This document shows positions 18,474-61,456 of a DNA stretch of 64,000 nt, piece by piece. Origin of the DNA: Escherichia phage vB_EcoM_005. How positions within the stretch are numbered: the stretch's first letter is position 1; each line of letters begins with the position of its first letter. Location of the stretch: the sequence record MK295203; one strand, 5' to 3'. The notes under the pieces are model-generated. The model searched no databases. It worked only from the letters and a program-made list of their open reading frames with translations, and was not told where the DNA came from. The position numbers were made by a program, and so were the translations under genes.

Positions 18474-18748
18474 TTGAAGATATTAAGGGTTATAAGCCGC
18501 ATACCGACGATAAAATCAGTAAAGTGAACGCTATCAAAGATGCCGAAGTTCGATTAGGGCTAATCTTTAAAGCCTTGGAAGAAGAATATGTTGAAGCCTT
18601 TACATGCTCGGGTGTTGATAAAATGAGTGATGAAGAATTCAACCTCACCCATGAACGCCTAGCCCAGATTCGTACGGCAATAGAACGCTTGAAAGAAGCA
18701 AGCATGTGGGCGTGTCGTTCCGTTTTCCAACCCGAGGAAAAATACTAA
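18470..18748 (+). CDS. hypothetical protein
   Basis: 92 aa, ATGA overlap with upstream gene. Confidence 0.45.
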   Translation: MIEDIKGYKPHTDDKISKVNAIKDAEVRLGLIFKALEEEYVEAFTCSGVDKMSDEEFNLTHERLAQIRTAIERLKEASMWACRSVFQPEEKY

Positions 18749-31257: not shown

Positions 31258-32232
31258 ATGCAAGATTTCGGACATTGGGCGGTATTTGAAGAAACCGATA
31301 TTAAAAACCATATTGGATTTGTATACGTAATCACTTTTGAAGATGGCAAAAAATATGTAGGTGCTAAAAAGATTTGGAAACGAATTAAAGCTGCACCTTG
31401 CACATTTAAACGCGGCCCTAAAAAAGGATTTGAAGAATCTGATTGGAAAACCTATACCTCATCATCTAATGAACTAAACGCAATGATAGAAAAGGGTATA
31501 AGTCCTAAAGAGTACCTTATTGTAGGATGGTATCCTACTTGGGGTAAAACTCTTATGGCAGAAATGGAAATGCAATTAGCCAATGATGTTTTACGAGACC
31601 CTATGTGGCTTAACAAGCAAATTGGCGGACATTTCAACCCTAACTGCTTTGACGATTTAACCGCTGACGAAGTTGGCAAGTATATTAAATCTGGGTGGCA
31701 ATTTGGTCGTTCTAAAACAGAAAAACATTCTGTTACCTATAATTGCTCTAAATTTACTATATGGGACTATCAAGAAAATAAAGCAGTGGAAGTTCTAAAT
31801 CAAAATGAGTTTGCTCGTAATAATGATTTAAGTAGCAACCATCTAACTAGACTACTTCAAGGAACTCTCGACCTTATTAAAGATCGCTGGGGACTTCCAC
31901 CAGATATTGCTCGTCAGCGTTATAAATTTCAGGACGTTTCTTCAGGAACAAAATTTTTATCTAATTCTGAGTTAGAAGAATTTTACGGTATGACTCGCGG
32001 TCAGGCTAACAAAGCCGTTAAAGATGGAAGAGCCGTTAAATTGGTAGTCGAAAGCAAAGAAGACCACATTAAAAAACTTGGCTCTATCGAATTGGTAAAA
32101 ACCGAAAAGACAAAAGTTACGTCTCAAGTAATGCTTAACAGTTTTAAAGATATAGTTAATCCTATGACCACTGCCGAAAAATCAGAAATGATTGAATGGT
32201 TGGAAAGTTATATAACTTATTTGAAATCTTAA
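31258..32232 (+). CDS. GIY-YIG homing endonuclease-like protein
   Basis: N-terminal GFVYVITFEDGKKYVGAKK (GIY...YIG pattern) with downstream conserved R/E/N; 324 aa. Confidence 0.6.
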   Translation: MQDFGHWAVFEETDIKNHIGFVYVITFEDGKKYVGAKKIWKRIKAAPCTFKRGPKKGFEESDWKTYTSSSNELNAMIEKGISPKEYLIVGWYPTWGKTLMAEMEMQLANDVLRDPMWLNKQIGGHFNPNCFDDLTADEVGKYIKSGWQFGRSKTEKHSVTYNCSKFTIWDYQENKAVEVLNQNEFARNNDLSSNHLTRLLQGTLDLIKDRWGLPPDIARQRYKFQDVSSGTKFLSNSELEEFYGMTRGQANKAVKDGRAVKLVVESKEDHIKKLGSIELVKTEKTKVTSQVMLNSFKDIVNPMTTAEKSEMIEWLESYITYLKS

Positions 32233-36735: not shown

Positions 36736-37491
36736 ATGAAATACATCACATACCTGACAATATATTCCGGGACTAAGCTTCCACCGTTTTATATAGGGTC
36801 TACCACTTTGGAGAAGCATTTAAAAGGATACCACGGGAGTGTCCTTTCTAAAGCATATAAAGAAATCTATAAAAATGAGCTTTTAGAGCACCCAGAATTA
36901 TTTGACTCATGTATTGTAAGTGAACACCCTACAAGAGAAGAGGCTTTAGAAGCTGAAAGAATGTACCAGTTAAGAACCGATGCGGCCCAAAATCCTCTAT
37001 TCTTTAATAGGGCTGTCGCAGCTCCTAAAGGATTCTTTGGGCTTTCGCTACCTAAAGAGCAACACCCTCTTTACGGCTCTCATAATGCTAAAGGGTATAT
37101 TCATTCCTATAATCCTGTTACATTGGAACAAACCTTTGCACCTACAGTCCCCGAAGGATATGTAGAAGGTCGTTCACCTAATTATAAAGCATCTAGTCAT
37201 AATAAGGGCAGGAAGTGGTATAACAATGGTGTTGACAAAGGATTATTTGTAGAAGGAAAACAACCCGAATCTTGGGTTCTTGGTGGTTTTCTAACCGATG
37301 AGCATAAGAAAAACTTGAAAAGAACTGATGGGATATATGACGGCAATTATCACAATTTAGTTTATAAAATTTTTAAGCCTACCGTTACAATTGTTAGACC
37401 TAAGAAAATCTGGGTTAATGACGGCATAAAAAGCTTTATGATTTCTGAGATAGAATTTAATAGTGAAATACATTATAAAGGTAGATTATGA
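36736..37491 (+). CDS. GIY-YIG (Seg-like) homing endonuclease
   Basis: N-terminal YITYLTIYSGTKLPPFYIGST (GIY...YIG), downstream conserved Glu/Asn; 251 aa; lies between 55 and 47 where T4 carries a-gt. Confidence 0.6.
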   Translation: MKYITYLTIYSGTKLPPFYIGSTTLEKHLKGYHGSVLSKAYKEIYKNELLEHPELFDSCIVSEHPTREEALEAERMYQLRTDAAQNPLFFNRAVAAPKGFFGLSLPKEQHPLYGSHNAKGYIHSYNPVTLEQTFAPTVPEGYVEGRSPNYKASSHNKGRKWYNNGVDKGLFVEGKQPESWVLGGFLTDEHKKNLKRTDGIYDGNYHNLVYKIFKPTVTIVRPKKIWVNDGIKSFMISEIEFNSEIHYKGRL

Positions 37492-38510: not shown

Positions 38511-38770
38511 CTTTAGACGAATTCAAAAAATCAGGCCTCGAACTAGAACACGACTGTATCGTTATTGATGACGATGGACAGCCTAGTACAATCAAGTTCT
38601 GGTTCGAGGCCGTGAGCACCCGTGATACCAACGAGCTTATTAAAGTCTATGTTGCCACCGATTGGGCTGTGGAATTTAGCTTTAATGTAATGGTAGATGA
38701 TACTCCAGAAACATTAATCCATATGGCTGAATCATGCATCAAGGATGCTTATAACGATGAAGACTTTTAA
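38507..38770 (+). CDS. hypothetical protein
   Basis: 87 aa between 47 and 46. Confidence 0.45.
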   Translation: MTLDEFKKSGLELEHDCIVIDDDGQPSTIKFWFEAVSTRDTNELIKVYVATDWAVEFSFNVMVDDTPETLIHMAESCIKDAYNDEDF

Positions 38771-40241
38771 GTTAAAGAAAGTAACGTATAAAAATATTAT
38801 GTCGGTAGGCCAGCAACCTATTACAATCCAACTTGATAAGGTCCAAAAGACCTTAGTCACCGGTAAAAATGGCGCTGGGAAATCTACGTTCCTTGAAGCC
38901 GTTACATTTGCTCTGTTCGGTAAGCCTTTTCGTGATGTTAAGAAAGGGCAATTAATTAACTCAAGTAATAAGAAAGACCTTTTGGTCGAACTGTGGATGG
39001 AATATGATGGCAAAGAATACTACATCAAACGTGGGCAAAAACCCAACGTTTTTGAAATCTCTTGTGACGGTGAACGTCTTGATGAATCTGCCAGCAGTAA
39101 AGACTTCCAAGCGGAATTTGAACAGCTTATCGGAATGTCCTACACAAGCTTCAAACAGATTGTCGTACTTGGTACAGCAGGGTATACCCCTTTCATGGGT
39201 TTGTCGACCCCTGCGCGAAGAAAGCTCGTCGAAGACCTCTTAGAGGTTTCTGTATTAGCGGATATGGATAAGCTGAACAAATCTTTGATTCGTGAGACTA
39301 ATAGCCAAATCCAAGTAATCGACGTTAAACAGGATTCTATTACCCAGCAAATTAAAATTTATAATGACAACGAAGAACGTCAGCGTAAATTATCCGGGGT
39401 CATCGTCGATGATGACCCTAGCGACTCTATGAGTGACCTGAGTAATAAAGGATTTGCAATCAAGAATGATATGGCAACCTTTACTAAGGTCGTGAAATTA
39501 TACGAAACCGGCGGTAGTTGTCCTACATGTATGCAAGGATTGGAAGAGCACGGAAATATCCTTACTAAAATTAAGGATAAGAATTTTGAGCTTCAAAAAT
39601 CTTTGGATAAGATTAATGAGCAGTACCAAGAACTCAAGCTCATTAAGGACCAAGTAACCGAACAACGTAATAAAGCGTTGGCTATTAAATCTCAGATAGC
39701 TACTCATAAGCAACAAGCCATTACTGCCGTAGAGAAAGCTAAAAAAGTTAAAGTATTAATCGACCAAGCAGCTGCTGAGTTCGTAAGTAATGCCGAAGAG
39801 ATTGCCGCGCTTCAAGCAGAGCTTGATAAAATCGTCTCTACCAAATCGTCCTTAGTAATGGAAAAATATCATCGTATTATGGAAGCCGACTACGTCTTTA
39901 CACTGGACGAAGAGTTCAATGAGACGATTAAATCACGTGGACGTGAAGACTTTAGTTATGCTTCATTTTCACAGGGTGAGAAAGCACGTATTGATATCGC
40001 ACTACTTTTTACATGGCGTGATATTGCTTCTAAGGTATCAGGTGTTAATATCAGCACGTTAATTCTTGATGAGGTATTTGACAGTGCTACTGACGCTGAA
40101 GGCGTTAAGACCATTGCAACCATCTTGAATAGCCTTGAGGATACGAACGTGTTCATTATTTCTCACCGAGACCATGACCCACAAGCTTATGGCCAGCATC
40201 TTCAAATGAAGAAAGTTGGACGATTCACGGTGATGGAATGA
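38757..40241 (+). CDS. 46: recombination endonuclease subunit gp46 (Rad50/SbcC-like ATPase)
   Basis: Walker A GKNGAGKST, coiled-coil middle, signature/Walker B FSQGEKARIDIALLF...LILDEVFD; matches recalled T4 gp46 ends. Confidence 0.9.
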   Translation: MKTFKLKKVTYKNIMSVGQQPITIQLDKVQKTLVTGKNGAGKSTFLEAVTFALFGKPFRDVKKGQLINSSNKKDLLVELWMEYDGKEYYIKRGQKPNVFEISCDGERLDESASSKDFQAEFEQLIGMSYTSFKQIVVLGTAGYTPFMGLSTPARRKLVEDLLEVSVLADMDKLNKSLIRETNSQIQVIDVKQDSITQQIKIYNDNEERQRKLSGVIVDDDPSDSMSDLSNKGFAIKNDMATFTKVVKLYETGGSCPTCMQGLEEHGNILTKIKDKNFELQKSLDKINEQYQELKLIKDQVTEQRNKALAIKSQIATHKQQAITAVEKAKKVKVLIDQAAAEFVSNAEEIAALQAELDKIVSTKSSLVMEKYHRIMEADYVFTLDEEFNETIKSRGREDFSYASFSQGEKARIDIALLFTWRDIASKVSGVNISTLILDEVFDSATDAEGVKTIATILNSLEDTNVFIISHRDHDPQAYGQHLQMKKVGRFTVME

Positions 40242-40933: not shown

Positions 40934-41632
40934 ATGAAATTCTCTAAAGAAACTCTGAACATTCTGAAAAACTTCTCCGGTATTAACCCAGGTATCATGC
41001 TTAAACCTGGTAACACTATTCTAACTCGTTCAGTAACGGGTGCAAGTTATGGTGAAGCTACTGTAAATGACACCTTTGATATCGAAGCCGCAATTTATGA
41101 TTTGAACGGCTTCTTAAGTATTCTGTCATTGGTATCTGATAGTGCTGAAGTTTCGGTAAGTGAAGACCAAACCACTTTAATTATTAAAGACCAACGTTCA
41201 ACTATTAAGTGGCCTATTGCCGACCCAAGCACAATTGCATTCCCAAGCAAAGCTATTCCGTTCCCAGTGGCTGAAGTTATTTTTGACCTTAAAGCTGAAG
41301 ATTATCAACAGTTGATGCGGGTGTCCTCTGGACTGAGTATTGATACATTTGCTATTACTGTAGACAATGGTAAAATTGTAATCAATGGTTACAAACAAGT
41401 TGATGATAAGGACCTGGCACGCCCATTGTATTCCTTAGTGGTTGCAGACCATGATGGCCCTGAATTCAAATTCATTATTAACAAAACTAATATGAAAATG
41501 ATGCCGGCCGATTACCATGTTCTGTTATGGGCACGCGGTGAAGGTCAGGACGCTCGTTTCGCTGCTAAGTTTGAAGGTTCACAAGCTTCTTACGTATTAG
41601 CTATGGAAGCAGGCTCAAGCCACTCGTTCTAA
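40934..41632 (+). CDS. 45: sliding clamp gp45
   Basis: NFSGINPGIMLKPG..ILTRSV.G..YGEA...D..D.EAAIYDLNGFLSILSLV matches recalled T4 gp45; 232 aa. Confidence 0.95.
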   Translation: MKFSKETLNILKNFSGINPGIMLKPGNTILTRSVTGASYGEATVNDTFDIEAAIYDLNGFLSILSLVSDSAEVSVSEDQTTLIIKDQRSTIKWPIADPSTIAFPSKAIPFPVAEVIFDLKAEDYQQLMRVSSGLSIDTFAITVDNGKIVINGYKQVDDKDLARPLYSLVVADHDGPEFKFIINKTNMKMMPADYHVLLWARGEGQDARFAAKFEGSQASYVLAMEAGSSHSF

Positions 41633-42096
41633 TGTATATATGTTATCATAATACGATAACCAACACTAAAACCAAGTGTGTCTATCATTATTTTGGTAGA
41701 CACCGTGTTACTGCTGAAGAATACTACGGTACAGGTAAGTTTGTTAAGAAATGCAAACGAGAAAATGCTATTACTCCAGGTCTTTGGGAGTTTTGTGTTG
41801 AAGTTATCCATACAGTGGATACGTTTAAAGAAGCCAAGATTATTGAAGAAGAGCTTGTTAAAGAAGGCATATCAAAATATGGTATCCTTTGTGTTAATAA
41901 GAATCCTGGTGGTGATGGCGGTGTGGATTACCACACCGAAGAATCTAAACGTAAAATGTCAGAAACTAGAACAGGAAAATCAAGAATATTTTCCGAAAGT
42001 CATAAAGAAAATTTAAGTAAACGAGCCAGAAAATACTCTGATGTTTGGTCCGAACCTGTATATTCAAATCTTAAAACCATTTGGCTGGAAACAGGT
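41632..42096 (+). mobile_element. GIY-YIG endonuclease-like module, in-frame with downstream gene 44 (no stop codon)
   Basis: CVYHYFGRH...YYGTGKF (GIY/YIG), FCVEVIH..EAKIIEEELV, NKNPGG, then NUMOD3-like HTEESKRKMSETRTGKSR...SESHKENLSKRARKY; ATG overlaps gene 45 stop. Confidence 0.55.
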
Positions 42097-43068
42097 ATGT
42101 TATTAAATGGTTTAACTATTAATGAAAACGACTTCATGTGGGAACAGAAATATCGTCCAGGTACTTTATCTGAGTGTATTCTGCCTGCGCATGATAAAGA
42201 AACCCTCCAAGCCATTGTTAATAAGGGCCTAATCCCTAACATTATCCTAGTCTCTGCTTCACCAGGCACAGGTAAAACTACCGTAGCTAAAGCATTGTGT
42301 GCTGATACAAATTCAGATATGCTGTTTGTTAACGGTTCTGACTGCCGTATTGATTTCGTTCGTAACGAACTTACTCGTTTTGCATCTTCTAAATCTATCG
42401 AAGGTAAGCGTAAGGTAATTGTTATCGACGAATTCGACCGCGCTGGTGTTGCTGAAGCTCAACGTCACCTTCGTTCGTTCTTAGAAGCCTATTCCTCAAA
42501 CTGTTCTGTAATTATTACAGCAAACAATATTGATGGTATTATCGGTCCACTTCAATCCCGTTGTCGTGTTATTAAATTTGGTGAAGCCACTCCAGCCGAC
42601 CAAACATCCATGATGAAAGAAATGATTCATCGTGCTGTAGCAATCTGTAAAAACGAAAATATCGAAGTCGAAGACCTTAAAGTTATTGCCGCTTTAGTTA
42701 AACAAAACTTTCCTGACTTCCGTAAAACAGTTAACCAACTGGACCGTTACTCATCCAGTGGTAAAATCGATACAGGCATTTTGAGTATTGTAATGAATAC
42801 CAATTCGCCTATCGATGAAGTAGTGGCTGCACTTAAAGATAAAAACTTTAAAGAACTCCGTGCATTAGCTCCACGCCATGTCAATGACTATTCCAACTTT
42901 ATTATGTCACTGGCTAACGAACTCTATGGTAAATTGCCTGGACCAAGCATTGTTAGAATGTATGAAATTGTCGGTGAAAATAACCAATACCACGGTATTG
43001 CGGCTAACCCAGAAATTCACATGACTTATCTGTTCATCCAACTTGCTCTGGAGCTCCAATGGCTATAA
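42097..43068 (+). CDS. 44: clamp loader large subunit gp44 (coordinates from internal ATG)
   Basis: EQKYRPGTLSECILPAHDKET, Walker A SPGTGKTT, VIDEFDR, SRC motif QSRC; near-collinear with recalled T4 gp44. Confidence 0.9.
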   Translation: MLLNGLTINENDFMWEQKYRPGTLSECILPAHDKETLQAIVNKGLIPNIILVSASPGTGKTTVAKALCADTNSDMLFVNGSDCRIDFVRNELTRFASSKSIEGKRKVIVIDEFDRAGVAEAQRHLRSFLEAYSSNCSVIITANNIDGIIGPLQSRCRVIKFGEATPADQTSMMKEMIHRAVAICKNENIEVEDLKVIAALVKQNFPDFRKTVNQLDRYSSSGKIDTGILSIVMNTNSPIDEVVAALKDKNFKELRALAPRHVNDYSNFIMSLANELYGKLPGPSIVRMYEIVGENNQYHGIAANPEIHMTYLFIQLALELQWL

Positions 43069-43631
43069 GTCTTTTTGATGATGACGTTGAACTGAACGAA
43101 CATGAAGTTGCTTGGAAACAACGTAACGATGCTGCTATTCAAGCCTTGGCCGATTCATTTAAAGAAAAGGCTGAAAACGAATTGTTTGCCATTATGAACG
43201 ATATCACATATGGTAAGAACCAACGTAACTTGGCTCAGTCGGAAAACTACAATCAATTTTGGCTCGATAATAGTTTGAGCCAACATGTGGATTGCATTAT
43301 GCAGGCTGCAATGGTTAACTGTTTGAAACTTGATGACCAAAGTCATTTCAACTATCTTTTACATGCCGTTCCTAAGGGTAAGAGATTTGGTAAATGGGCT
43401 AAGGCCCATGATGATGAAGTTAGTGTAGTTTTTATTACTCGTTTATTGATGAAATACCATTCAATTAATAATGATGACGCTTATCGTTATCTCGAGACTT
43501 ATAAAATTAAAGGCCATCTTCCGGCAGTGCTTAAGAAGATGAAAGGGTTGGTTACTGACGAATTCCTGAAATCCGTAACCAAAAATGTTAAAGAACAAAA
43601 AGACTTGAAAAAGAAAGCATTGGAATGGTAA
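43059..43631 (+). CDS. 62: clamp loader small subunit gp62
   Basis: 190 aa, overlaps gene 44 stop, position between 44 and regA. Confidence 0.85.
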   Translation: MAISLFDDDVELNEHEVAWKQRNDAAIQALADSFKEKAENELFAIMNDITYGKNQRNLAQSENYNQFWLDNSLSQHVDCIMQAAMVNCLKLDDQSHFNYLLHAVPKGKRFGKWAKAHDDEVSVVFITRLLMKYHSINNDDAYRYLETYKIKGHLPAVLKKMKGLVTDEFLKSVTKNVKEQKDLKKKALEW

Positions 43632-44000: not shown

Positions 44001-44120
44001 TATGATTCTTGAAATTTATAAGTTACTACATCCGGGACAGCAAGTCTTCCAGGCTATGATTAGAACTAAAGACGAATATGGCAATCCGTCTATTAAACGT
44101 TTTACAATAGAAATTTAAGC

Positions 44121-44199: not shown

Positions 44200-46812
44200 A
44201 TGCAAGAATTCTATTTGACAGTCGAACAAATCGGTGATAATATTCTCGAACGTTACATCGATAAAAATGGTAACGAACGTAGTCGTGAAGTTCCTTACAA
44301 GCCTACAATGTTTATGCATGCTAATCCAGAGCAAGCCGTAAAATACATTGATATCTATGGTAAGGGTTGTGTTAAGAAAGAATTCGACTCTATGCGTGAT
44401 GCATCCCAATGGATGAAACGTATGGACGATATGGGTCTCGAAGCCCTGGGTATGGACGACTATAAATTAGCCTATTTGTCTGATACCTATCGTAAAGAAA
44501 TCAAATACGATTCTTCTAAGATTCGTATTGCTAACTTCGACATCGAGGTAACATCTCCTGATGGATTCCCTGAACCAGCTCAGGCTAAACATCCTATCGA
44601 TGCCATTACCCACTACGACTCGATTGACGATAAATTCTATGTATTCGACCTTTTAGTTTCACCTTATGGTACCGTTGAAGAGTGGTCTATTAAAATCGCT
44701 GAGAAACTCCAAGAAGAAGGTGGTGACGAAGTTCCACAAGAAATCATTGACAAAATCGTTTATCTTCCGTTTAATTCCGAAGAAGAAATGATGCTTGAGT
44801 ATCTGAATTTCTGGCAGCAGAAAACTCCTGTTATTTTGACTGGTTGGAACGTTGAGTCGTTTGACGTACCATACGTTTATAACCGTCTGAAAAATCTGTT
44901 TGGTGAGAACACTGCTAAGCGATTAAGCCCACACCGTAAGACTCGTGTTAAAGTTATCGAGAACATGTATGGTGCTCGTGAAATTATTACACTGTTCGGT
45001 ATCTCTGTTCTGGATTATATCGACCTTTATAAAAAATTCAGCTTTACCAACCAGCCTTCTTATTCTTTGGATTATGTTTCTGAATATGAATTGAAAGTAG
45101 GTAAGTTGAAATATGATGGTCCAATCTCCAAGTTACGTGAGACGAACCACCAACGATATATTTCCTATAACATTATCGACGTATATCGTGTAGTGCAGAT
45201 TGATATGAAACGCCAGTTCATTCTTCTGAGTTTGGACATGGGTTATTATGCTAAGATGCAGATTCAGTCGGTGTTCAGTCCAATTAAGACTTGGGACGCT
45301 ATTATCTTTAATAGCCTTAAAGAACAAGGCAAGGTCATTCCACAAGCTCGTTCACACGTGGTCCAACCTTATCCTGGTGCTTTCGTTAAGGAACCTATTC
45401 CTAACGCATACAAATATGTAATGAGTTTTGACCTTACATCTCTGTACCCGAGTATTATTCGACAAGTGAATATAAGCCCAGAGACCATCGCAGGCACATT
45501 CGCTAATGCACCGATACATGAATATATTGCCGGAACAGCTCCGCGTCCTAGCGACGTCTACAGTTGCTCTCCTAACGGCATGATGTACTATAAAGACCGT
45601 GATGGTGTGATTCCTACAGAAATCACTAAGGTGTTCTTACAACGTAAAGAACATAAAGGTTATATGCTTGCAGCTCAACGTAATGGCGAGTTAATTAAAG
45701 AAGCATTAGAAAATCCTAATCTGTCAGTTGATAGTCCACTGGATATCGATTATCGTTTTGACTTCTCTGACGAAATCAAAGCCAAGATTAAAACGCTGTC
45801 AGCACCTTCTTTAAAAGAAATGTTGTTCAGAGCCGAACGTACTGAAGTCGCAGGTATGACTGCTCAGATTAACCGTAAGTTGCTTATCAACTCCCTTTAT
45901 GGTGCACTTGGTAACGTATGGTTCCGTTACTATGACCTCAGGAACGCAACTGCAATCACACTGTTTGGTCAAATGGCCCTCCAATGGATTGAACGTAAGG
46001 TTAACGAATATCTGAACAGCGTGTGTAAGACTGAAAATCAGAAGTTCGTGCTCTATGGTGATACTGACTCCATTTATGTTAAGGCAGATGCAATCATCAA
46101 TAAAGTAGGCGAAGATAAATTCCGTGACACTAACCACTGGGTCGACTTCTTAGATAAATTTGCACGTGAACGTATGGAACCGGCTATTGATGCAGGCTTC
46201 CGTGAGATGTGCGAGTACATGAACAACAAACAACACTTGATGTTCATGGACCGAGAAGCTATCGCAGGTCCTCCACTTGGTTCTAAAGGTCTTGGTGGAT
46301 TCTGGACAGGCAAGAAACGTTATGCACTTAACGTTTGGGACATGGAAGGCACTCGTTATGCCGAACCACACTTGAAAATCATGGGTCTCGAAACTCAGAA
46401 ATCAAGTACACCTAAAGCGGTTCAGAAAGCTCTGAAAGAATGTATCCGTCGTATGCTTCAGGAAGGCGAGGCATCTTTGCAAGAATATTTCAAACAGTTT
46501 AATAAGGAATTTAACGAACTGGACTATGTAAGCATTGCAGCAGTATCCAGTGCTAACAACATCGAGAAATATAATGAAGGCGGATTGGTATATGTACTGC
46601 CACTTAAAGAAGGCAACCCATTCGGTGAAGCCTGTATGGCATGGCCGTCAGGTATTGAACTTCCGATTCAGATTCGTGACCAAGTCCTCCGTTGGATGGA
46701 CTACAACGTACTGTTCCAAAAGACCTTTATCAAGCCTCTGACTGGTTTTACCGAGTCTGCTAAAATCGACTACGAGAAAAAAGCAACATTATTTGACATG
46801 TTTGACTTTTAA
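44200..46812 (+). CDS. 43: DNA polymerase gp43 (family B)
   Basis: exo motifs FDIEV, YNIID; pol motifs DLTSLYPSII, KKRY (GKKRYALNVWDMEG), YGDTDS; very close to recalled RB69/T4 gp43. Confidence 0.95.
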   Translation: MQEFYLTVEQIGDNILERYIDKNGNERSREVPYKPTMFMHANPEQAVKYIDIYGKGCVKKEFDSMRDASQWMKRMDDMGLEALGMDDYKLAYLSDTYRKEIKYDSSKIRIANFDIEVTSPDGFPEPAQAKHPIDAITHYDSIDDKFYVFDLLVSPYGTVEEWSIKIAEKLQEEGGDEVPQEIIDKIVYLPFNSEEEMMLEYLNFWQQKTPVILTGWNVESFDVPYVYNRLKNLFGENTAKRLSPHRKTRVKVIENMYGAREIITLFGISVLDYIDLYKKFSFTNQPSYSLDYVSEYELKVGKLKYDGPISKLRETNHQRYISYNIIDVYRVVQIDMKRQFILLSLDMGYYAKMQIQSVFSPIKTWDAIIFNSLKEQGKVIPQARSHVVQPYPGAFVKEPIPNAYKYVMSFDLTSLYPSIIRQVNISPETIAGTFANAPIHEYIAGTAPRPSDVYSCSPNGMMYYKDRDGVIPTEITKVFLQRKEHKGYMLAAQRNGELIKEALENPNLSVDSPLDIDYRFDFSDEIKAKIKTLSAPSLKEMLFRAERTEVAGMTAQINRKLLINSLYGALGNVWFRYYDLRNATAITLFGQMALQWIERKVNEYLNSVCKTENQKFVLYGDTDSIYVKADAIINKVGEDKFRDTNHWVDFLDKFARERMEPAIDAGFREMCEYMNNKQHLMFMDREAIAGPPLGSKGLGGFWTGKKRYALNVWDMEGTRYAEPHLKIMGLETQKSSTPKAVQKALKECIRRMLQEGEASLQEYFKQFNKEFNELDYVSIAAVSSANNIEKYNEGGLVYVLPLKEGNPFGEACMAWPSGIELPIQIRDQVLRWMDYNVLFQKTFIKPLTGFTESAKIDYEKKATLFDMFDF

Positions 46813-46875: not shown

Positions 46876-47112
46876 ATGGAAGCTTTAATCGTTAGTGCTG
46901 GTGTTTTAGGATTCGGTTCTCTGGCTATTATGTTCATTGGTTACTTTTTACCATGGATTTTAGCTCTTCTGCGAGGCACTCGTAGTAATGTAGGAATTTT
47001 CTTCCTTAATCTCCTGTTAGGTTGGACGATGATTGGTTGGGTAGTGGCTTTAATCTGGGCTATCGCTGCTGAACGTAAATCAAATGCACAAATCATTATT
47101 GTTAAACAGTAA
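46876..47112 (+). CDS. imm: Imm-like small membrane protein (superinfection immunity family)
   Basis: 78 aa, two TM helices (LIVSAGVLGFGSLAIMFIGYFLPWILALL / GIFFLNLLLGWTMIGWVVALIWAI); directly after gene 43 as T4 imm. Confidence 0.55.
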   Translation: MEALIVSAGVLGFGSLAIMFIGYFLPWILALLRGTRSNVGIFFLNLLLGWTMIGWVVALIWAIAAERKSNAQIIIVKQ

Positions 47113-53133: not shown

Positions 53134-53455
53134 TTTATCTGATTTAGATAATTTCGTTAAAGATACCGAAGAGGGTCCTAGTGACCCTCGGTATTATGAG
53201 AAATCATTAGATATAATCCGTAAGTCAATGGGTTCTGTTAAGCAGGAAATTATGCTTACTTTACCCGATGGCACTGCTCACATCGTTTATGTGATGAATA
53301 TTGTTATTGAGAAAGATGGAAAAGTGTCGGTTGATTTCGGAACACCTTCCGAAGACCGAAAAGAAGAGCTAGCGCTTCATGTAGAAAAATGTGTTACAAT
53401 GCAAATACAAGAAGAACTGGATAAAATTAAATCTAAGAGGTGGTGGAAATGGTAG
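53126..53455 (+). CDS. 40: gp40-like head vertex assembly protein (synteny)
   Basis: 109-aa ORF between uvsX and 41. Confidence 0.5.
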   Translation: MTDLSDLDNFVKDTEEGPSDPRYYEKSLDIIRKSMGSVKQEIMLTLPDGTAHIVYVMNIVIEKDGKVSVDFGTPSEDRKEELALHVEKCVTMQIQEELDKIKSKRWWKW

Positions 53456-54881
53456 AAACTATTTTGGCTCAACTGCTAGGCAATAGTGATTATTTCACTA
53501 AGGTCTGGCCTTATATGAATGATTCTTATTTTGACCAGGGTCCTGCAAAGACCCTTTTCAAAGAAATTAAAAAACACGTCAATGAATATAATGCAGTGCC
53601 TTCTAAGAACGCATTGAGCATTGCATTAGATAACAGTACGCTTTCAGAAGTTGAACATCAGGGCGCTAAAGAGCTTTTAAGTTCACTGAATGCCGGACCT
53701 GAAGACCAAGAATGGTTGGTTAAAGAGACGGAGAAATACGTTCAGAAAGCAGCGATGTATAATGCAACTTCAAAAATCATTGAAATCCAAACTAATGCCG
53801 ACCTTCCGGTTGAGCAACAAAATAGAAAACTTCCAGGTATTGGTGCTATTCCTGGATATCATGCGTGATGCATTATCGATTTGTTTCGATTCTGAATTAG
53901 GTCATGACTGGATGGATGACTATGAAGAACGATTCAAAAGTTATTCCGATAAAGCACGTAAGGTTCCGTTCCGTCTTAATATTCTGAATAAGATTACCAA
54001 GGGTGGTGCCGAGTTTGGTTACTGAAAACGTATTGTTGGCAGGAACAAACGTAGGTAAGTCTCTTGGCCTGTGTTCATTGGCTGCTGATTACCTTCAATC
54101 AGGTTACGATGTTCTTTATATCTCCATGGAGATGGCAGAGGAAGTATGTGCTAAGCGTATAGATGCCAACCTTCTGGATGTATCGCTGGATGATATCGAT
54201 GATGGTCATGTCTCTTGGCCTGAATATAAAGCTAAGATGGATAAATGGCGTTCAACTGCTACCTTAGGTCGTTTAAAGATTAAACAGTATCCTACTGGTG
54301 GTGCTAATGCCGATACCTTCCGTGCATTATTAAACGAATACAAGCTCAAACAAAACTTTGTGCCGCAGGTCGTTATCGTCGACTACTTGGCCATTTGTGC
54401 ATCGTCTCGTACTAAAGTTTTCTCTGAAAACAGTTACGGATTGATTAAGATGGTAGCCGAAGAACTACGTGGACTGGCAGTAGAGAAGAAATTATTGTTG
54501 TGGACAGCAGCCCAGACTACTCGTGGTGCGAACGTTGCGGCCGAAATCGATATGGCTGATATTGCTGAATCATTTGGTATTGCACATACTGCAGACTTCA
54601 TGTTAGGTGTGGTCGAGACAGAAGAGTTTGCTCAGATGGGTATGCAAATGGTTAAGCAGCTTAAATCTCGTTACGGCGATAAGAGCTACTACAACAAATT
54701 TAAGATTGGCGTTAAGAAAGGAAACCAACGTTGGTATGAAGTTGAAGACGATTCCAACCCAGGCCCGGTGAACACTGTTCGTGAGGCTACAGGTGAGATG
54801 AATCGTCAAGCCGAGGTCAATCGTCAGACGCGTGTTAATAGAAGTGATTTAGACGATTTAGCAGCATCTATCAAATTTTAA
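53440..54881 (+). pseudogene. 41: replicative helicase gp41 (DnaB-like), split across three frames by two +1 shifts
   Basis: segments 53440-53868, 53870-54025 and 54003-54881 each align with consecutive parts of recalled T4 gp41 (..GAIP|DIMR.. and ..GGAE|TG.. junctions); Walker A GTNVGKS in third segment. Confidence 0.85.
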
Positions 54882-57048: not shown

Positions 57049-57210
57049 ATGAAATCTTTTAAAGAAGTTATGAACGAAGATATGGTCGCAGGCGATGCAG
57101 GTGGTAATCCTACTGCTATTGCCTCCGGAACTACCTCAGGCGCAGTCGTCAACAAAGGGCCTGAACAAATCCCATCTAAAAAGCGTAAAGAAAAATCCGA
57201 AAACGAATGA
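57049..57210 (+). CDS. hypothetical small protein
   Basis: 53-aa ORF after SD aggag; in same frame as the downstream endonuclease fragment, separated by a single TGA. Confidence 0.35.
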   Translation: MKSFKEVMNEDMVAGDAGGNPTAIASGTTSGAVVNKGPEQIPSKKRKEKSENE

Positions 57211-57246
57211 TATAATGGCTCTATTAATTTAGAGTATGATAAGTAC

Positions 57247-57777
57247 ATGGGTTCAGGAGGGCCTTTAAGTAGGGCAAAGGAAAAATACGGGCTGGAAAAT
57301 TTCGAAAGAGAAATTCTAGAGTTTTTCCCTAATGAAGACCTAATGAACGAAGCTGAGGCAGCTATAGTAACTAAAGAATTTATTAAAAGACCCGATGTTT
57401 ATAATGCTGTGCCGGGCGGCAGAAGTTTTAGAGTAGGCCCGACGGAAAATTATGATTCTAAACGGCATTCAGAAGTCCAGATAAAAAGCTGGGATAATCC
57501 TGAAAAAAGGGCCAAGCAAGCCAAAACTATAAAAGCTATCGCATGGAAAGAATGGGATAATTTAGAGGAAGTAAAAATCCGACATAAAGAATCCTGCAGT
57601 AAAGCACAAAGAAAACATAAAGCCTGGAAAGATTATAATGTATTAAAAGAGATTTGGGTTAAATTAGGAAAACCTGGATACGGTAGGTTTAATAATGAAT
57701 TAATTAAGCTTGGTTACGAAAAAAGAAATTACCAAAGAATGGTAGATGCTTTTAATAAAGAGGAAGAACTAGTATGA
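57247..57777 (+). pseudogene. GIY-YIG homing endonuclease, N-terminally truncated
   Basis: begins at the YIG half (KYMGSGG...GLENFEREILEFF) with no GIY strand upstream; C-terminal module shared with the two HNH endonucleases. Confidence 0.5.
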
Positions 57778-58041
57778 GTTTTGTAGACAGAGAATTTGCT
57801 TTAAGAGCTTTTCAAACACTGCCAAAATTTAGACAAGTTACCGGAAGCGATTTTAAGCTTAACGCAAGGTGCCCTATTTGTGGTGACTCACAGAAAGACG
57901 AACATAAAGCTCGTTTTTGGGCTTATCCTGTGAATGATGGTGGCATTATGTTGCACTGCTTCAATTGCGATGCTAGTTTAGGAATTAAGAAGTATCTATA
58001 CGAATACGAGCCTGATTTATATCGTTAAGATGCCTGTCATC

Positions 58042-58245
58042 GAAAAGCTTAATTTCTGTGAACGATTAGATAGAATGCCAAACGACCATCCTATTATCAA
58101 ATATGTGACACTACGTTGCATTCCTGAAAACAAATGGAATCGTGAAAAGCTTAATTTCTGTGAACGATTAGATAGAATGCCAAAGGACCATCCTATTATC
58201 AAATATGTAACACTACGTTGCATTCCTGAAAACAAATGGAATCGC
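58042..58245 (+). repeat. tandem duplication, 2 x 102 bp (in-frame, 34 codons)
   Basis: 58042-58143 and 58144-58245 differ at ~3 positions. Confidence 0.9.
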
Positions 58246-58248
58246 TTA

Positions 58249-58597
58249 TGGTTTACTAAAGAATGGCCGGCATTGGTGAACTCTGTCAATCCAGGGACCT
58301 ATTCTAAATTGAAATGCCTGAGCCTCGTTTGGTTATTCCAATTTTCAATAAGAATAAACAAATTGAAAGTTTTCAGGGTCGAGCCTTACGTAAAGATGCT
58401 CCACAAAAATATATTACAATACGTTGTGGTTTACTAAAGAATGGCCGGCATTAGTTAACTCTGTGAATCCAGGGACCTATTCTAAAGAAATGCCTGAACC
58501 TCGTTTGGTTATTCCAATTTTCAATAAGAATAAACAAATTGAAAGTTTTCAGGGTCGAGCCTTACGTAAAGATGCTCCACAAAAATATATTACAATA
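58249..58597 (+). repeat. tandem duplication, 2 x ~172 bp, copies differ by a 2-nt indel
   Basis: 58249-58421 and 58427-58597; first copy has ctaaattgaaatg vs ctaaagaaatg. Confidence 0.9.
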
Positions 58598-58693
58598 AGT
58601 TGGTGTGGGTAATGGAAGGCCCTATTGACTCTTTGTTTGTTCCGAATGCAATAGCAATTACTGGCGGGTCGTTGGACTTGGCTATGGTTCCAT

Positions 58694-58788
58694 GTAAAGA
58701 AACTCGTGCCTGGGTAATGGACAATGAACCCCGCCATCCGTTGTAAAGAAACACGTGCCTGGGTAATGGACAATGAACCCCGCCATCC
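58694..58788 (+). repeat. tandem duplication, 2 x 46 bp with 49-bp period (frameshifting)
   Basis: gtaaagaaac(t/a)cgtgcctgggtaatggacaatgaaccccgccatcc at 58694 and 58743. Confidence 0.9.
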
Positions 58789-58817
58789 TGACACAATTAA
58801 GCGTATGCAACGATTAG

Positions 58818-59471
58818 TTGATGCTGGCGAAAGGGTTCTATTCTGGGACAAGAGGAAAATTAAGAGGTTCTAAGCGGTCTTTATCATATTATACGGAAGA
58901 ACACCATGTTATACCTAGATGTATGAATGGTTCTGATGATAAAAACAATTTAGTTGCTTTATTGCCAAGAGAACACTTTGTAGCTCATAGGCTTTTAACA
59001 AAAATATATCCCGAAGTAAAAGGTCTACATTATGCTGTTAATTTAATGAGATATAATAAAGGAGTTAAATTAACTAGTAGAACTATAGCCACGTTAAGAG
59101 AAAATAACGCTAAAGCATTTTCAGGAAAAAATAACCCGATGTTTGGTAAACCTTCCTGGATTAGAGGGATGAAAACTCCTGAAGAAACTAAAGCCAAAAT
59201 GCGCCTGGCTCATAAAGATAAAATTATATCTGATGAAGCCAAGGCCAATATGAGTAAAGCTAGAAAAGGAAGATTTAGTGGTAAAGATTCCCCTAGATAT
59301 GGTTTGCCAAATCCTAGGCGTGGAGAAATATGGAATAGTTACGATATGCTTTATGAATTATGGGTTTACAATAATAAACCTAAACGCACCAAATTTAATA
59401 AAATAGCTGTTGATAATGGATATCCTGATATTTGTTATCGACGAATGATAGAAAACTTTAATAGGAAATAA
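58818..59471 (+). CDS. HNH homing endonuclease (Mob-like); 5' end uncertain
   Basis: HNH motif EEHHVIPRCMNGSDDKNNLVALLPREHFVAH; NUMOD-like repeats; track ORF start overlaps primase-derived sequence. Confidence 0.65.
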   Translation: MMLAKGFYSGTRGKLRGSKRSLSYYTEEHHVIPRCMNGSDDKNNLVALLPREHFVAHRLLTKIYPEVKGLHYAVNLMRYNKGVKLTSRTIATLRENNAKAFSGKNNPMFGKPSWIRGMKTPEETKAKMRLAHKDKIISDEAKANMSKARKGRFSGKDSPRYGLPNPRRGEIWNSYDMLYELWVYNNKPKRTKFNKIAVDNGYPDICYRRMIENFNRK

Positions 59472-59475
59472 TATA

Positions 59476-59613
59476 ATGGCATTTTTTAACGAATGTAGTG
59501 GTTTGATTTCTGGTGTTGATAAAGCTGAGGAAGCTTATTTTAATGCTCTGATTCACGAAGATAATTTATTTATTCGCTTTAATCTAACAGTTTATAATTA
59601 TCTAACTTATTAA
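59476..59613 (+). pseudogene. dCTPase (gene 56) N-terminal fragment
   Basis: MAFFNECSGLISGVDKAEEAYFNALIHED then unrelated tail; 54 nt identical to the start of the next copy. Confidence 0.6.
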
Positions 59614-59636
59614 TGAATTGAAAAAGGAAAAATATA

Positions 59637-60056
59637 ATGGCACACTTTAACGAATGCGCAAACCTGATTGCTGGTGTTGATAAAGCTGAGGAAGCTTATT
59701 TTAATGCTCTGATTCACGAAGATAAGGACCCTCTGCAGGTTATGTTGCGTGAACAGAAAGATTGTATTGACGATGAATTCCGTGAACTTCTGACTTCCCT
59801 CGGTGAAATGTCTAAAGGTGAGAAAGATGCATCTGCTGTATGGAAAAAATGGAAAGCCCGTTACCCGGAAGCACAAGCCAAACCTATTTCAGAAATGTCT
59901 CCTGAAGACCAGCTTGAAATTAAATTTGAACTCATTGATATTATGCACTTCGTATTCAATATGGCTATTGGCTTGAATATGTCGGCTGAAGAAATGTTTA
60001 AACTTTATTACCTGAAAAATAAACACAACTTTGAACGCCAGGACAATGGATATTAA
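59637..60056 (+). CDS. 56: dCTP pyrophosphatase gp56 copy A (MazG-like), apparently lacking a middle segment
   Basis: MAHFNECA..I.GVDKA...DPLQVML then REQKDCIDDEFRELLTSLGEMS.GEK.ASAVWKKWKARY...EMSPEDQLEIKFEL.D..HFV.NM..GL.M.AEE.FKLYYLKNK.NF.RQD.GY, matching recalled T4 gp56 ends. Confidence 0.75.
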   Translation: MAHFNECANLIAGVDKAEEAYFNALIHEDKDPLQVMLREQKDCIDDEFRELLTSLGEMSKGEKDASAVWKKWKARYPEAQAKPISEMSPEDQLEIKFELIDIMHFVFNMAIGLNMSAEEMFKLYYLKNKHNFERQDNGY

Positions 60057-60106
60057 TTTCAAATCCGTTCTTAAAGAAAAGTTCCCGCAATGGGAACTTT
60101 TAGAAG
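60008..60106 (+). repeat. 99-bp direct repeat, copy 1 (3' end of dCTPase copy A plus junction)
   Basis: identical to 60430-60528. Confidence 0.9.
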
Positions 60107-60480
60107 ATAAACCTGAATATAACCGTCATCCTGATGACTTGGCTACTGCAGGTGAAGTTGTTGATTGGTTGCGCAATCAGAAAGATTATATTGATGATGA
60201 ATTCCGCGAACTTCTGACTTCTCTTGGTGGCATGAGCAATGGCGAAAAAGATGCGAGCGCTGTATGGAAGCCTTGGAAAGCTCAACATGCTGAACGTCGT
60301 GAAACCCTGATTAACGATTTGTCTCCTGAAGACCAGCTCGAAATTAAATTCGAAATGATTGATATTCTGCACTTTGTTCTGAATATGTTCCAAGGTCTTG
60401 GACTGACTGCTGAAGAAATCTTTAAACTGTATTACCTGAAAAATAAACACAACTTTGAACGCCAGGACAATGGATATTAA
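60046..60480 (+). CDS. dCTP pyrophosphatase gp56 copy B (diverged paralog/allele), lacking the N-terminal segment
   Basis: YNRHPDDLATAGEVVDWLRNQKDYIDDEFRELLTSLG... ; ~75 percent nt identity to copy A body, identical 99-bp 3' end. Confidence 0.7.
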   Translation: MDINFKSVLKEKFPQWELLEDKPEYNRHPDDLATAGEVVDWLRNQKDYIDDEFRELLTSLGGMSNGEKDASAVWKPWKAQHAERRETLINDLSPEDQLEIKFEMIDILHFVLNMFQGLGLTAEEIFKLYYLKNKHNFERQDNGY

Positions 60481-60528
60481 TTTCAAATCCGTTCTTAAAG
60501 AAAAGTTCCCGCAATGGGAACTTTTAGA
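60430..60528 (+). repeat. 99-bp direct repeat, copy 2
   Basis: identical to 60008-60106; runs into the start of the HNH ORF. Confidence 0.9.
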
Positions 60529-61311
60529 GGTCATGATTACTTAAAAATTATAGATAAGTATAAACTAAACGTCCATACCAAATCTAAAACTGAAGCTCAT
60601 CATATACTTCCGAAGTGTGCATTTCCAGAATACAGCGATTTTAAAATCTCTCCTTGGAATAGGGTGTATCTTCCTATATACCAACACATATATGTTCATT
60701 ATCTTTTGTGCTCAACTAAGGTGTCGGGTTTGCTTAATGCATTCCAGAGAATGACACTAACAAATAGTGCCCAGTTTAAGAAGCTTTCTGATTTAGAGAA
60801 AGACCTTACTATTAAGTTATGGGCCGATAAACGTGGGGAGTGGATAGAGCAAGACATTCTCCGTAAAAGAAAATCCTTTATGTATTCTAATTTTGATTTC
60901 TGGTATAATGACTGGATTTCGCGGGATATGCCTCGCTATCGAAGATATTGGGGAGTTTTGGTTGAAGAAAATAATCCGGAAGTTTTAGGTACCCACAAAA
61001 ATAGTTTATTGACAGTGGTAAAAGATTTTTGTTTGAGATACGCAGAAGAACATAATTTATCTGAAGAAGAAGTTTTGAGTCTTCAAAAATTAAAACAGTC
61101 TTCAGAAAAAGCTTTAAAAGATAAAGGAAAAACTTTAAGTAAAACTGCTAGAGGCAATCAACTCAAATGGAATTATGAAACTGAGCTTAGGAATTTATGG
61201 ATTGCTAATAACAAACCAAAATATGTGAATTTCAGAAAGCTAGTGGTTAGCTTAGGCTACCCGGATGAAAATTATATAAACATGATAAAGAGGTTTGAAA
61301 ATGGGTTCTGA
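60514..61311 (+). CDS. HNH homing endonuclease (Mob-like)
   Basis: HNH motif EAHHILPKC...NRVYLPIYQHIYVHY; C-terminal module similar to the 58818 endonuclease; ATG lies inside the 99-bp repeat. Confidence 0.65.
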   Translation: MGTFRGHDYLKIIDKYKLNVHTKSKTEAHHILPKCAFPEYSDFKISPWNRVYLPIYQHIYVHYLLCSTKVSGLLNAFQRMTLTNSAQFKKLSDLEKDLTIKLWADKRGEWIEQDILRKRKSFMYSNFDFWYNDWISRDMPRYRRYWGVLVEENNPEVLGTHKNSLLTVVKDFCLRYAEEHNLSEEEVLSLQKLKQSSEKALKDKGKTLSKTARGNQLKWNYETELRNLWIANNKPKYVNFRKLVVSLGYPDENYINMIKRFENGF

Positions 61312-61456
61312 GATGTTGCTTTGGGCCATAGTCTTCCTTTTATTCTTAATTGGGTTGGGGATTTATAGAATTACTGGCCTATTAGAACGACAGTTTAAAG
61401 ATGGCCAGTAATTAAGTTATAAATACACCTGTAATTAAACAACAAAGGAGTTAATT

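Follow-up and report, generated by a model that had tools for sequence, protein, structure and literature searches.

In phage Aeh1, the nrdA gene is a case of 'genes in pieces' that has been linked to the insertion of a homing endonuclease. A related arrangement is that of mobE, a homing endonuclease gene between nrdA and nrdB, bordering essential genes of the T4 family (PMC2790892). In insertions of the mobE and Aeh1 type a selfish endonuclease gene adjoins an essential gene of replication or nucleotide metabolism; the endonuclease ORF remains separate, the expression signals of the host gene are retained and the phages are viable. Seg-type endonucleases of T4 and endonucleases of the I-TevI type (PF01541, PF19835, NUMOD3 PF07460; PDB 1LN0) have the GIY-YIG fold with its Tyr, Tyr, Glu and Asn residues and a NUMOD3-type linker, and are free-standing between conserved core genes in some genomes and not in close relatives. 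The closest counterparts to the locus described here are Bp7 F392_gp157 (YP_007004123.1) and PSD2002_0259 (UCR81375.1) of phage PSD2002, which follow directly on gene 45, overlap it by TAATG and precede gene 44, the gene of the clamp-loader large subunit. In T4, the start region of gene 44 is a RegA operator (PMC3014915).

In this study, we analyse a stretch of 64,000 nucleotides (the window), whose source, judged by sequence, is a JS98-like (Dhakavirus) T4 relative; relatives of this group are 95-98% identical to the region, Bp7 and PSD2002 being the closest. Between the genes of the sliding clamp and the small clamp-loader subunit the window shows a single ORF of 478 codons on the + strand (41632..43068), stop-free throughout in the ORF list, whose ATG overlaps the gene 45 stop (TAATG at 41630-41634, one base in common). 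This ORF and its overlap, the starting point of the preliminary description, are present exactly so in the letters of the window. An in-frame internal ATG is found at 42097. The ORF start at 41632 lacks a ribosome-binding site of its own, and the only signal upstream of ATG 42097 is a weak GGA at -10 to -8, 7 nt upstream. The locus consists of the following features, each with the evidence on which it is based:

40934..41632, + strand: gene 45, sliding clamp, 232 aa, intact (ORF list; exact protein on many public contigs)
41632..42102, + strand: first 157 codons of a predicted Seg-like GIY-YIG homing endonuclease gene, 192 codons in intact relatives (nucleotide identity, PHROG_314, profile matches)
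41632..41901, + strand: predicted GIY-YIG catalytic domain, aa 1-90 (residue alignment with I-TevI)
41932..42027, + strand: two NUMOD3-like linker motifs, aa 101-116 and aa 120-132 (sub-threshold Pfam NUMOD3; strong NUMOD3 repeats in homologues)
42097..42099, + strand: internal ATG, endonuclease Met155 and not the native gene 44 start (sequence; alignment with Bp7, PSD2002 and MX01)
42103..42103, no strand: dropout junction, a single T in place of 113 nt (alignment with PSD2002, L002 2304-2416)
42104..43068, + strand: gene 44 body, clamp-loader large subunit, from within codon 5 to the stop (Pfam domains; T4 gp44 3U5Z)
43059..43631, + strand: gene 62, clamp-loader small subunit, intact (ORF list; exact protein on many contigs)

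The N-terminal 471 nt of the ORF are nucleotide-identical to the first 157 codons of Bp7 F392_gp157 and PSD2002_0259, both genes of 192 codons at the same locus. Due to this identity to an annotated gene, the N-terminal part of about 155 aa is real coding sequence and not a chance open frame. Concerning its family, searches with Pfam GIY-YIG (PF01541) and SegE (PF19835) gave no match with the window part or with the complete proteins of Bp7 and MX01, up to an E-value of 10, and Pfam NUMOD3 stayed below threshold (E 0.006, 17 bits versus a cut-off of 20.4). The ORF did match PHROG_314, 'homing endonuclease', with E-values of 5e-17 to 9e-17. Moreover, a profile made from a few close homologues retrieved 9939 proteins, the best of which pass Pfam GIY-YIG, SegE_GIY-YIG and NUMOD3; matches carrying PF01541, PF19835 and NUMOD3 were obtained at E-values of 1e-18 to 1e-24. 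We based membership in the GIY-YIG family on this transitive evidence, that is on PHROG_314 together with profile matches that themselves pass PF01541 or PF19835. The label GIY-YIG/NUMOD3 given to the upstream part by the preliminary description was right; of the profile searches, the direct Pfam search fails, and PHROG_314 and the homologue profile match.

Residues Y5, Y20, G22, E72 and N89 align with Y6, Y17, G19, E75 and N90 of I-TevI, and the alpha/beta catalytic fold of GIY-YIG enzymes is recognisable. The position of the catalytic Arg is uncertain: R23 or perhaps R25 stands opposite R30/H31 of I-TevI, not opposite R27. Among PDB chains, a search by sequence brought no match to the endonuclease. 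The upstream ORF is a predicted divergent Seg-like GIY-YIG homing endonuclease, having the fold, the aligned Tyr, Tyr, Glu and Asn residues, a probable NUMOD3-type linker and the free-standing, patchy occurrence in common with the Seg and I-TevI types, from which it differs by staying under the Pfam GIY-YIG and SegE thresholds, by a short C-terminal domain and by the uncertain Arg. The gene itself is real but ordinary, free-standing and annotated only as 'hypothetical protein'. Its C-terminal tail of about 37 residues, a putative DNA-binding module, is kept in relatives and in the distant homologue P0005 and falls inside a block that is missing from the window. That the endonuclease part is too short and has no C-terminal domain had been correctly noticed; the tail lies in the lost block.

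The product read from 42097 can be aligned over its full length with T4 gp44 (PDB 3U5Z, E 6e-144), covering T4 residues 2-318, and shares 67% identity with the T4 protein cluster (further structures PDB 3U60 and 8UH7). The Pfam domains AAA (PF00004), Gp44_lid (PF21328) and Gp44_C (PF21429) are present at residues about 200-476 of the fused ORF, which thus holds the AAA+ module, lid and C-terminal domain of a full-length clamp-loader large subunit. The complete gp44 previously assigned downstream of the endonuclease part stands as regards the full alignment from 42097 but not as regards its start, since 42097 is endonuclease Met155 and the native start lies in the missing block. The same 113-nt block contains the whole initiation region of gene 44 (ribosome-binding site, ATG, A/U-rich RegA-type site), which is absent from the window. 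In contrast to the fused ORF, known gp44 proteins have no N-terminal extension: the best 120 of 2230 homologues measure 318-342 aa and include no longer gp44, none of them covering more than 69% of the fusion.

In related phages the junction of genes 45 and 44 exists in two forms. It is occupied in Bp7, PSD2002, MX01, SHP1, LQ5 and the metagenome contig DRR827119_552 by a separate ORF of 188-192 codons, which starts on the gene 45 stop and ends 8-23 nt inside gene 44 in a different frame; the copies in MX01, SHP1 and LQ5 are orthologues of the Bp7 and PSD2002 genes (78% identity). VR20, which belongs to the genus Gaprivervirus, has a 60%-identical endonuclease copy at the same site, and across the intact occupied relatives, VR20 included, the gene is 188-196 codons long. 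The site is empty in JS98, IME341, QL01 and more than 40 Dhakavirus records, which have a 62-nt spacer and a gp44 of 319 aa, as against 325-330 aa in occupied relatives. Presence and absence are thus polymorphic at one fixed site, with six phages in two genera occupied, and this pattern fits an endonuclease that would home site-specifically into the 45/44 junction. The gene 44 start region and the first ~15 codons differ between occupied and empty alleles, as expected if the target site was altered or co-converted. In occupied sites the 3' end of the endonuclease gene carries the gene 44 ribosome-binding site. The C-terminal third of the endonuclease is prone to indels among relatives, MX01 having two 6-nt gaps 40-90 nt upstream of the block that the window lacks.

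All endonuclease copies in the phage collection are full-length and free-standing, and none was found fused to gene 44 among about 20 genomes and contigs of relatives. Genes of the Bp7 and PSD2002 type have a stop of their own, the conserved tail of ~37 aa and, downstream, the ribosome-binding site and ATG of gene 44; none of these three is present in the window. It departs likewise from the insertions of the mobE and Aeh1 type, its ORF being fused and the signals of the host gene gone.

From the end of gene 45 up to GGTATGTTA at 42102 the window agrees base for base with Bp7 and PSD2002. There follows one T (42103) and then TAAATGG, within codon 5 of gene 44, from where the identity to Bp7 and PSD2002 resumes. 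In place of this single T, PSD2002 has 113 nt (L002 2304-2416), a net loss of 112 nt for the window, and the 24-nt flanks on both sides of 42103 are without mismatch to PSD2002. The missing block comprises the end of the endonuclease gene (codons 158-192 and the stop), the GAGG ribosome-binding site, the A/U-rich start region AAAATAATAATG, and the gene 44 ATG with the first four codons. Its length is equal in the four occupied sequences that were aligned directly (Bp7, PSD2002, MX01 and contig L014), and its loss is unique to the window as compared to Bp7, PSD2002 and L014. The 478-codon ORF arises because a net loss of 112 nt (3n+1) compensates for the +1 offset by which the reading frames of the two genes differ. 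The alignment with the 45-44 junctions of relatives, which had been proposed beforehand, resolves the case as a 113-nt dropout. A natural fusion with the same architecture in independent genomes was not found: the exact 478-aa fusion protein did not occur among 153 billion gene positions, nor the junction 42-mer in IMG/VR or the JGI metagenomes. A 57-mer specific for the window had no match in these two collections either, a 50-mer taken from the seg-like gene upstream retrieved nothing closer than a relative of about 94% identity, and a 567-aa protein and gp47 of the window had no exact record.

The loss at 42103 has many counterparts in the window. Whole-window blastn against LQ5 and IME341, with LQ5 versus IME341 as control, revealed a net loss of exactly 99 nt at 19 sites (13142, 19927, 22138, 23752, 23869, 24613, 27012, 28541, 29883, 30452, 31661, 32919, 37341, 39397, 39875, 44016, 46586, 51604 and 62809) and a net loss of 102 nt (a 103-nt block) at one further site, 11520. 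The control showed no such loss of about 100 nt. The signature is a 100-nt block that has given way to one base, the flanks showing no other difference. At the 10 sites that could be resolved cleanly, 42103 included, the filler base is G in five cases and T in five, never A or C, for which the probability by chance is ~0.001. A search for the lost blocks at other places in the window gave no match. Hand-computed restored positions reveal no regular spacing of the dropouts, and the number of small indels is similar to that in the control, apart from two insertions in gene 41. Four of the dropouts lie near the 45-44-62 locus and were placed by comparison with relatives:

39397..39399, no strand: gene 46 dropout, 100 nt replaced by G
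39875..39876, no strand: second gene 46 dropout, net 99 nt
44016..44018, no strand: dropout immediately downstream of regA, 100 nt replaced by T
46586..46587, no strand: gene 43 dropout, net 99 nt

These four are absent from all eight contigs that encode an identical gp45, and a gene 46 dropout junction was not found in IMG/VR. Two natural-looking indels, of 209 nt at 38761 and of 132 nt at 47108, are common to some of the same eight relatives. The consequences for essential proteins are severe. In the window gp46 has 498 aa, as against 560 aa in the closest intact relatives, 66 residues being removed by the dropouts; gp43 has 870 aa instead of 903, and the 33 residues gone belong to the thumb (equivalent to about 797-829 of RB69 polymerase); gp41 is spread over three frames by two uncompensated 1-nt insertions, G at 53855 and T at 54020. 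With the essential gp43, gp46 and gp41 damaged, no viable phage could arise from the window sequence in its present form. Natural in-frame deletions were considered as a cause of the dropouts and rejected on account of the identical size at 19 sites, the G/T-only filler, the count of zero in the control of real genomes and the loss of conserved gp43 and gp46 core. The defects of the window have a uniform, non-biological signature, with at least 21 dropouts.

We assign 42103 to this class because it is unique to the window, lies in the same size range, has a single G/T filler and perfect flanks and, moreover, destroys the expression signals of the essential gene 44. Its block is of 113 nt and so departs from the exact 100 nt of the class. 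The extra 13 nt are a counterpoint to the assignment; they could reflect a variable block size or a natural 13-nt difference hidden in the lost block, and the otherwise perfect local match to PSD2002 argues against the latter. Two overlapping 100-nt blocks giving 113 nt are possible but unconvincing, the offsets at the two odd sites being only 3 and 13 nt.

With the anatomy of the locus, its comparison with relatives and the recurrent dropout signature as observed, we regard the endonuclease-clamp-loader fusion as very probably a dropout artefact of the supplied sequence and not biology. Being one of no fewer than 21 dropouts of nearly the same form, the 45/44 loss counts as a defect of that sequence, and we infer for the 113-nt loss the same cause as for the 100-nt losses. 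The source phage, like a minority of its relatives, would carry a free-standing Seg-like GIY-YIG/NUMOD3 endonuclease gene between genes 45 and 44. A block of 113 nt over the 3' end of this gene and the start of gene 44 would be missing from the sequence, one T standing instead, and consequently the endonuclease stump would read straight into gene 44. Such a loss, as one of the many near-identical dropouts, would be an error of assembly or processing and no property of the living phage. The true sequence would then be 112 nt longer, reading ...AAACGCGGACGG...TTTTAATGAGGAAAATAATAATGAGTAAAGTAG..., or a variant of this 13 nt shorter.

The competing account is a real net deletion of 112 nt, in which the junction GGTATGTTATTAAATGG would be genuine in the phage, the endonuclease tail and the gene 44 start would be gone, and gp44 would be made by weak initiation at 42097 or by translational coupling to gene 45 by way of the endonuclease stump. 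Homing endonuclease genes commonly decay by deletion, the 113 nt differ from the 100-nt class, and ATG 42097, with its weak GGA, would give a near-native gp44 N-terminus (MLLNGLT... as compared to MSKVVNGLT...), two residues shorter. We nevertheless consider this account improbable, given that the one-base G/T filler and the perfect flanks are the same as in the 100-nt dropouts, that none of about 20 related genomes and contigs has this junction, and that the lethal-looking defects of gp43, gp46 and gp41 make the sequence untrustworthy at such a scale. The deletion would, moreover, have cost gene 44 its strong GAGG site and its A/U-rich AUG region, which serves as the RegA operator of this gene in T4 (PMC3014915). 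It is quite improbable, too, that the 112-nt loss is real and that the gene 44 signals and the RegA operator fell to decay of the endonuclease, with expression as a GIY-YIG-gp44 fusion or from Met155. A decaying endonuclease was one of two readings offered by the preliminary description, and it is not supported: the retained 471 nt are without any difference from the intact Bp7 and PSD2002 gene. It is undercut further by the form of the truncation, one 113-nt block replaced by T, a signature that recurs at no fewer than 20 other sites, essential genes included. An intermediate case, an artefact of 100 nt together with a natural 13-nt deletion relative to Bp7 inside the lost block, would leave a frameshifted, decaying tail and an intact gene 44 start. 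It would reconcile the 113 nt with the 100-nt class, and finds some favour in the indel-prone C-terminal third of the ORF, with the two MX01 gaps, and in the other off-size dropout of 103 nt instead of 100 nt. Against it, 6/6 known occupied genomes (VR20 included) keep a full-length ORF, the block has the same length in all four sequences aligned, and the flanks are 100% identical to PSD2002. This case appears very improbable, and the small chance we allow it stands apart from the high probability given to the artefact.

The other reading offered was a genuine fusion, a selected protein in which every gp44 subunit of the clamp loader would have a GIY-YIG domain attached. The uninterrupted 478-codon frame and the apparently intact catalytic domain are what speaks for it; the in-frame outcome does not discriminate, since a natural deletion alone has a 1-in-3 chance of being in frame. 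Every relative with the endonuclease encodes it separately from gene 44: the endonuclease ORF ends at a stop of its own, and gene 44 is equipped with its own ribosome-binding site and ATG. The fused architecture is absent from the best 120 of 2230 gp44 relatives and has no exact record. Moreover, the fusion point lies inside the conserved C-terminal region of the endonuclease and not at a domain linker, and the nucleotide identity to unfused relatives leaves no sign of adaptation. The lack of an own ribosome-binding site would suit a poorly expressed selfish gene, not an abundant replication protein. A selected fusion is thus extremely improbable.

For the window, the preferred explanation as a dropout artefact means that any finding based on an odd gene length, on fused or frameshifted reading frames or on the absence of a domain needs to be checked against relatives first; gp46 of 498 aa, gp43 of 870 aa and the split gp41 are examples. 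A real fusion would make an unusual case of an essential replication gene that depends on the remnant of a selfish element for its expression. If the loss were real, a core replication protein would have captured the remnant of a selfish gene, either as its expression signal or as its N-terminal domain. The biological residue is modest: a Seg-like GIY-YIG family, annotated as 'hypothetical protein', that would be specific for the 45/44 junction in two genera of T4 relatives and would bring in a gene 44 start region of its own.

Beyond the junction of genes 45 and 44, 20 more sites of the window carry a single G or T in place of a block of about 100 nt which all relatives have. No dropouts of about 100 nt were found when two real genomes, LQ5 and IME341, were compared with each other as a control. 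We read these dropouts as artefacts of the sequence.

Dropouts in the window beyond the 45/44 junction, by net loss relative to the relatives
Net loss of 99 nt (19 sites): 13142, 19927, 22138, 23752, 23869, 24613, 27012, 28541, 29883, 30452,
31661, 32919, 37341, 39397, 39875, 44016, 46586, 51604, 62809
Net loss of 102 nt: 11520

Several genes of replication and recombination are damaged in the window. The Rad50-like recombination nuclease subunit gp46 (38745-40241) is 498 aa long instead of 560 aa, 33 codons being lost at each of two dropouts. DNA polymerase (gene 43, 44200-46812) has 870 aa as compared to 903 aa, and the part lost at the 46586 dropout corresponds to thumb residues ~797-829 of the RB69 polymerase. 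Compared with IME341, gene 41, encoding the replicative helicase (53449-54881), has two uncompensated one-base insertions, of G near 53855 and of T near 54020, and its reading is spread across three frames. The inserted bases are the same two that fill the dropouts.

Concerning the primase gene (gene 61 region, 57200-61400), the match to IME341 is limited to four fragments in two frames, with extra ORFs between the fragments, among them a NUMOD3-containing ORF at 58821-59471. Within a stretch of 79% identity, a piece of 117 nt (58026-58142) is 99% identical to IME341 and shifted by 83 nt. This pattern may stem from natural mosaicism, from the insertion of endonucleases or from further corruption. 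A 208-nt difference at 18746-18748 takes out precisely a single short ORF, some 68 codons in length, from ATG through TAA; judged against LQ5 and IME341, the two relatives compared at this site, it looks like natural presence or absence of a gene and not a member of the 100-nt class.

Two further homing endonuclease-like ORFs are found in the window, at 31258-32232 and 36736-37491, and each of them also carries a dropout (31661 and 37341, respectively). One of the two is a SegE_GIY-YIG protein (Pfam, E 8e-34); the other, GIY-YIG-looking and located immediately upstream of gene 47, has no Pfam match.

Among the relatives, the start region of gene 44 and the N-terminus of its product differ with the state of the 45-44 site (L001/L002, which carry the Seg-like GIY-YIG endonuclease, 2389-2450, versus JS98, L004, 1880-1925). 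Genomes with the endonuclease encode a gp44 of 325 aa beginning with MSKVVNGLTINENDF, whereas empty-site genomes encode one of 319 aa beginning with MLTVNNNEF. The differing 5' end of gene 44 probably reflects an altered or co-converted homing target. In the empty spacer of JS98 (L004 1833-1895, 62 nt), a TATAAT-like hexamer comes after a perfect hairpin, GGGAGGAATTTCCTCCC; in occupied genomes the endonuclease gene stands in place of this entire element.

Split core genes are seen in relatives. In Bp7 (L005 9154-11553), the annotation divides gene 46 into two pieces, and a 238-aa homing endonuclease comes next on the minus strand. Gene 43 is in two pieces, annotated or called, in PSD2002 (L006 14135-17076) and in one metagenome contig, ERR689729_110 (L025 4241-6573), with an extra ORF of 273 aa adjoining it. 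Core replication genes are often targeted by endonucleases in this phage group.
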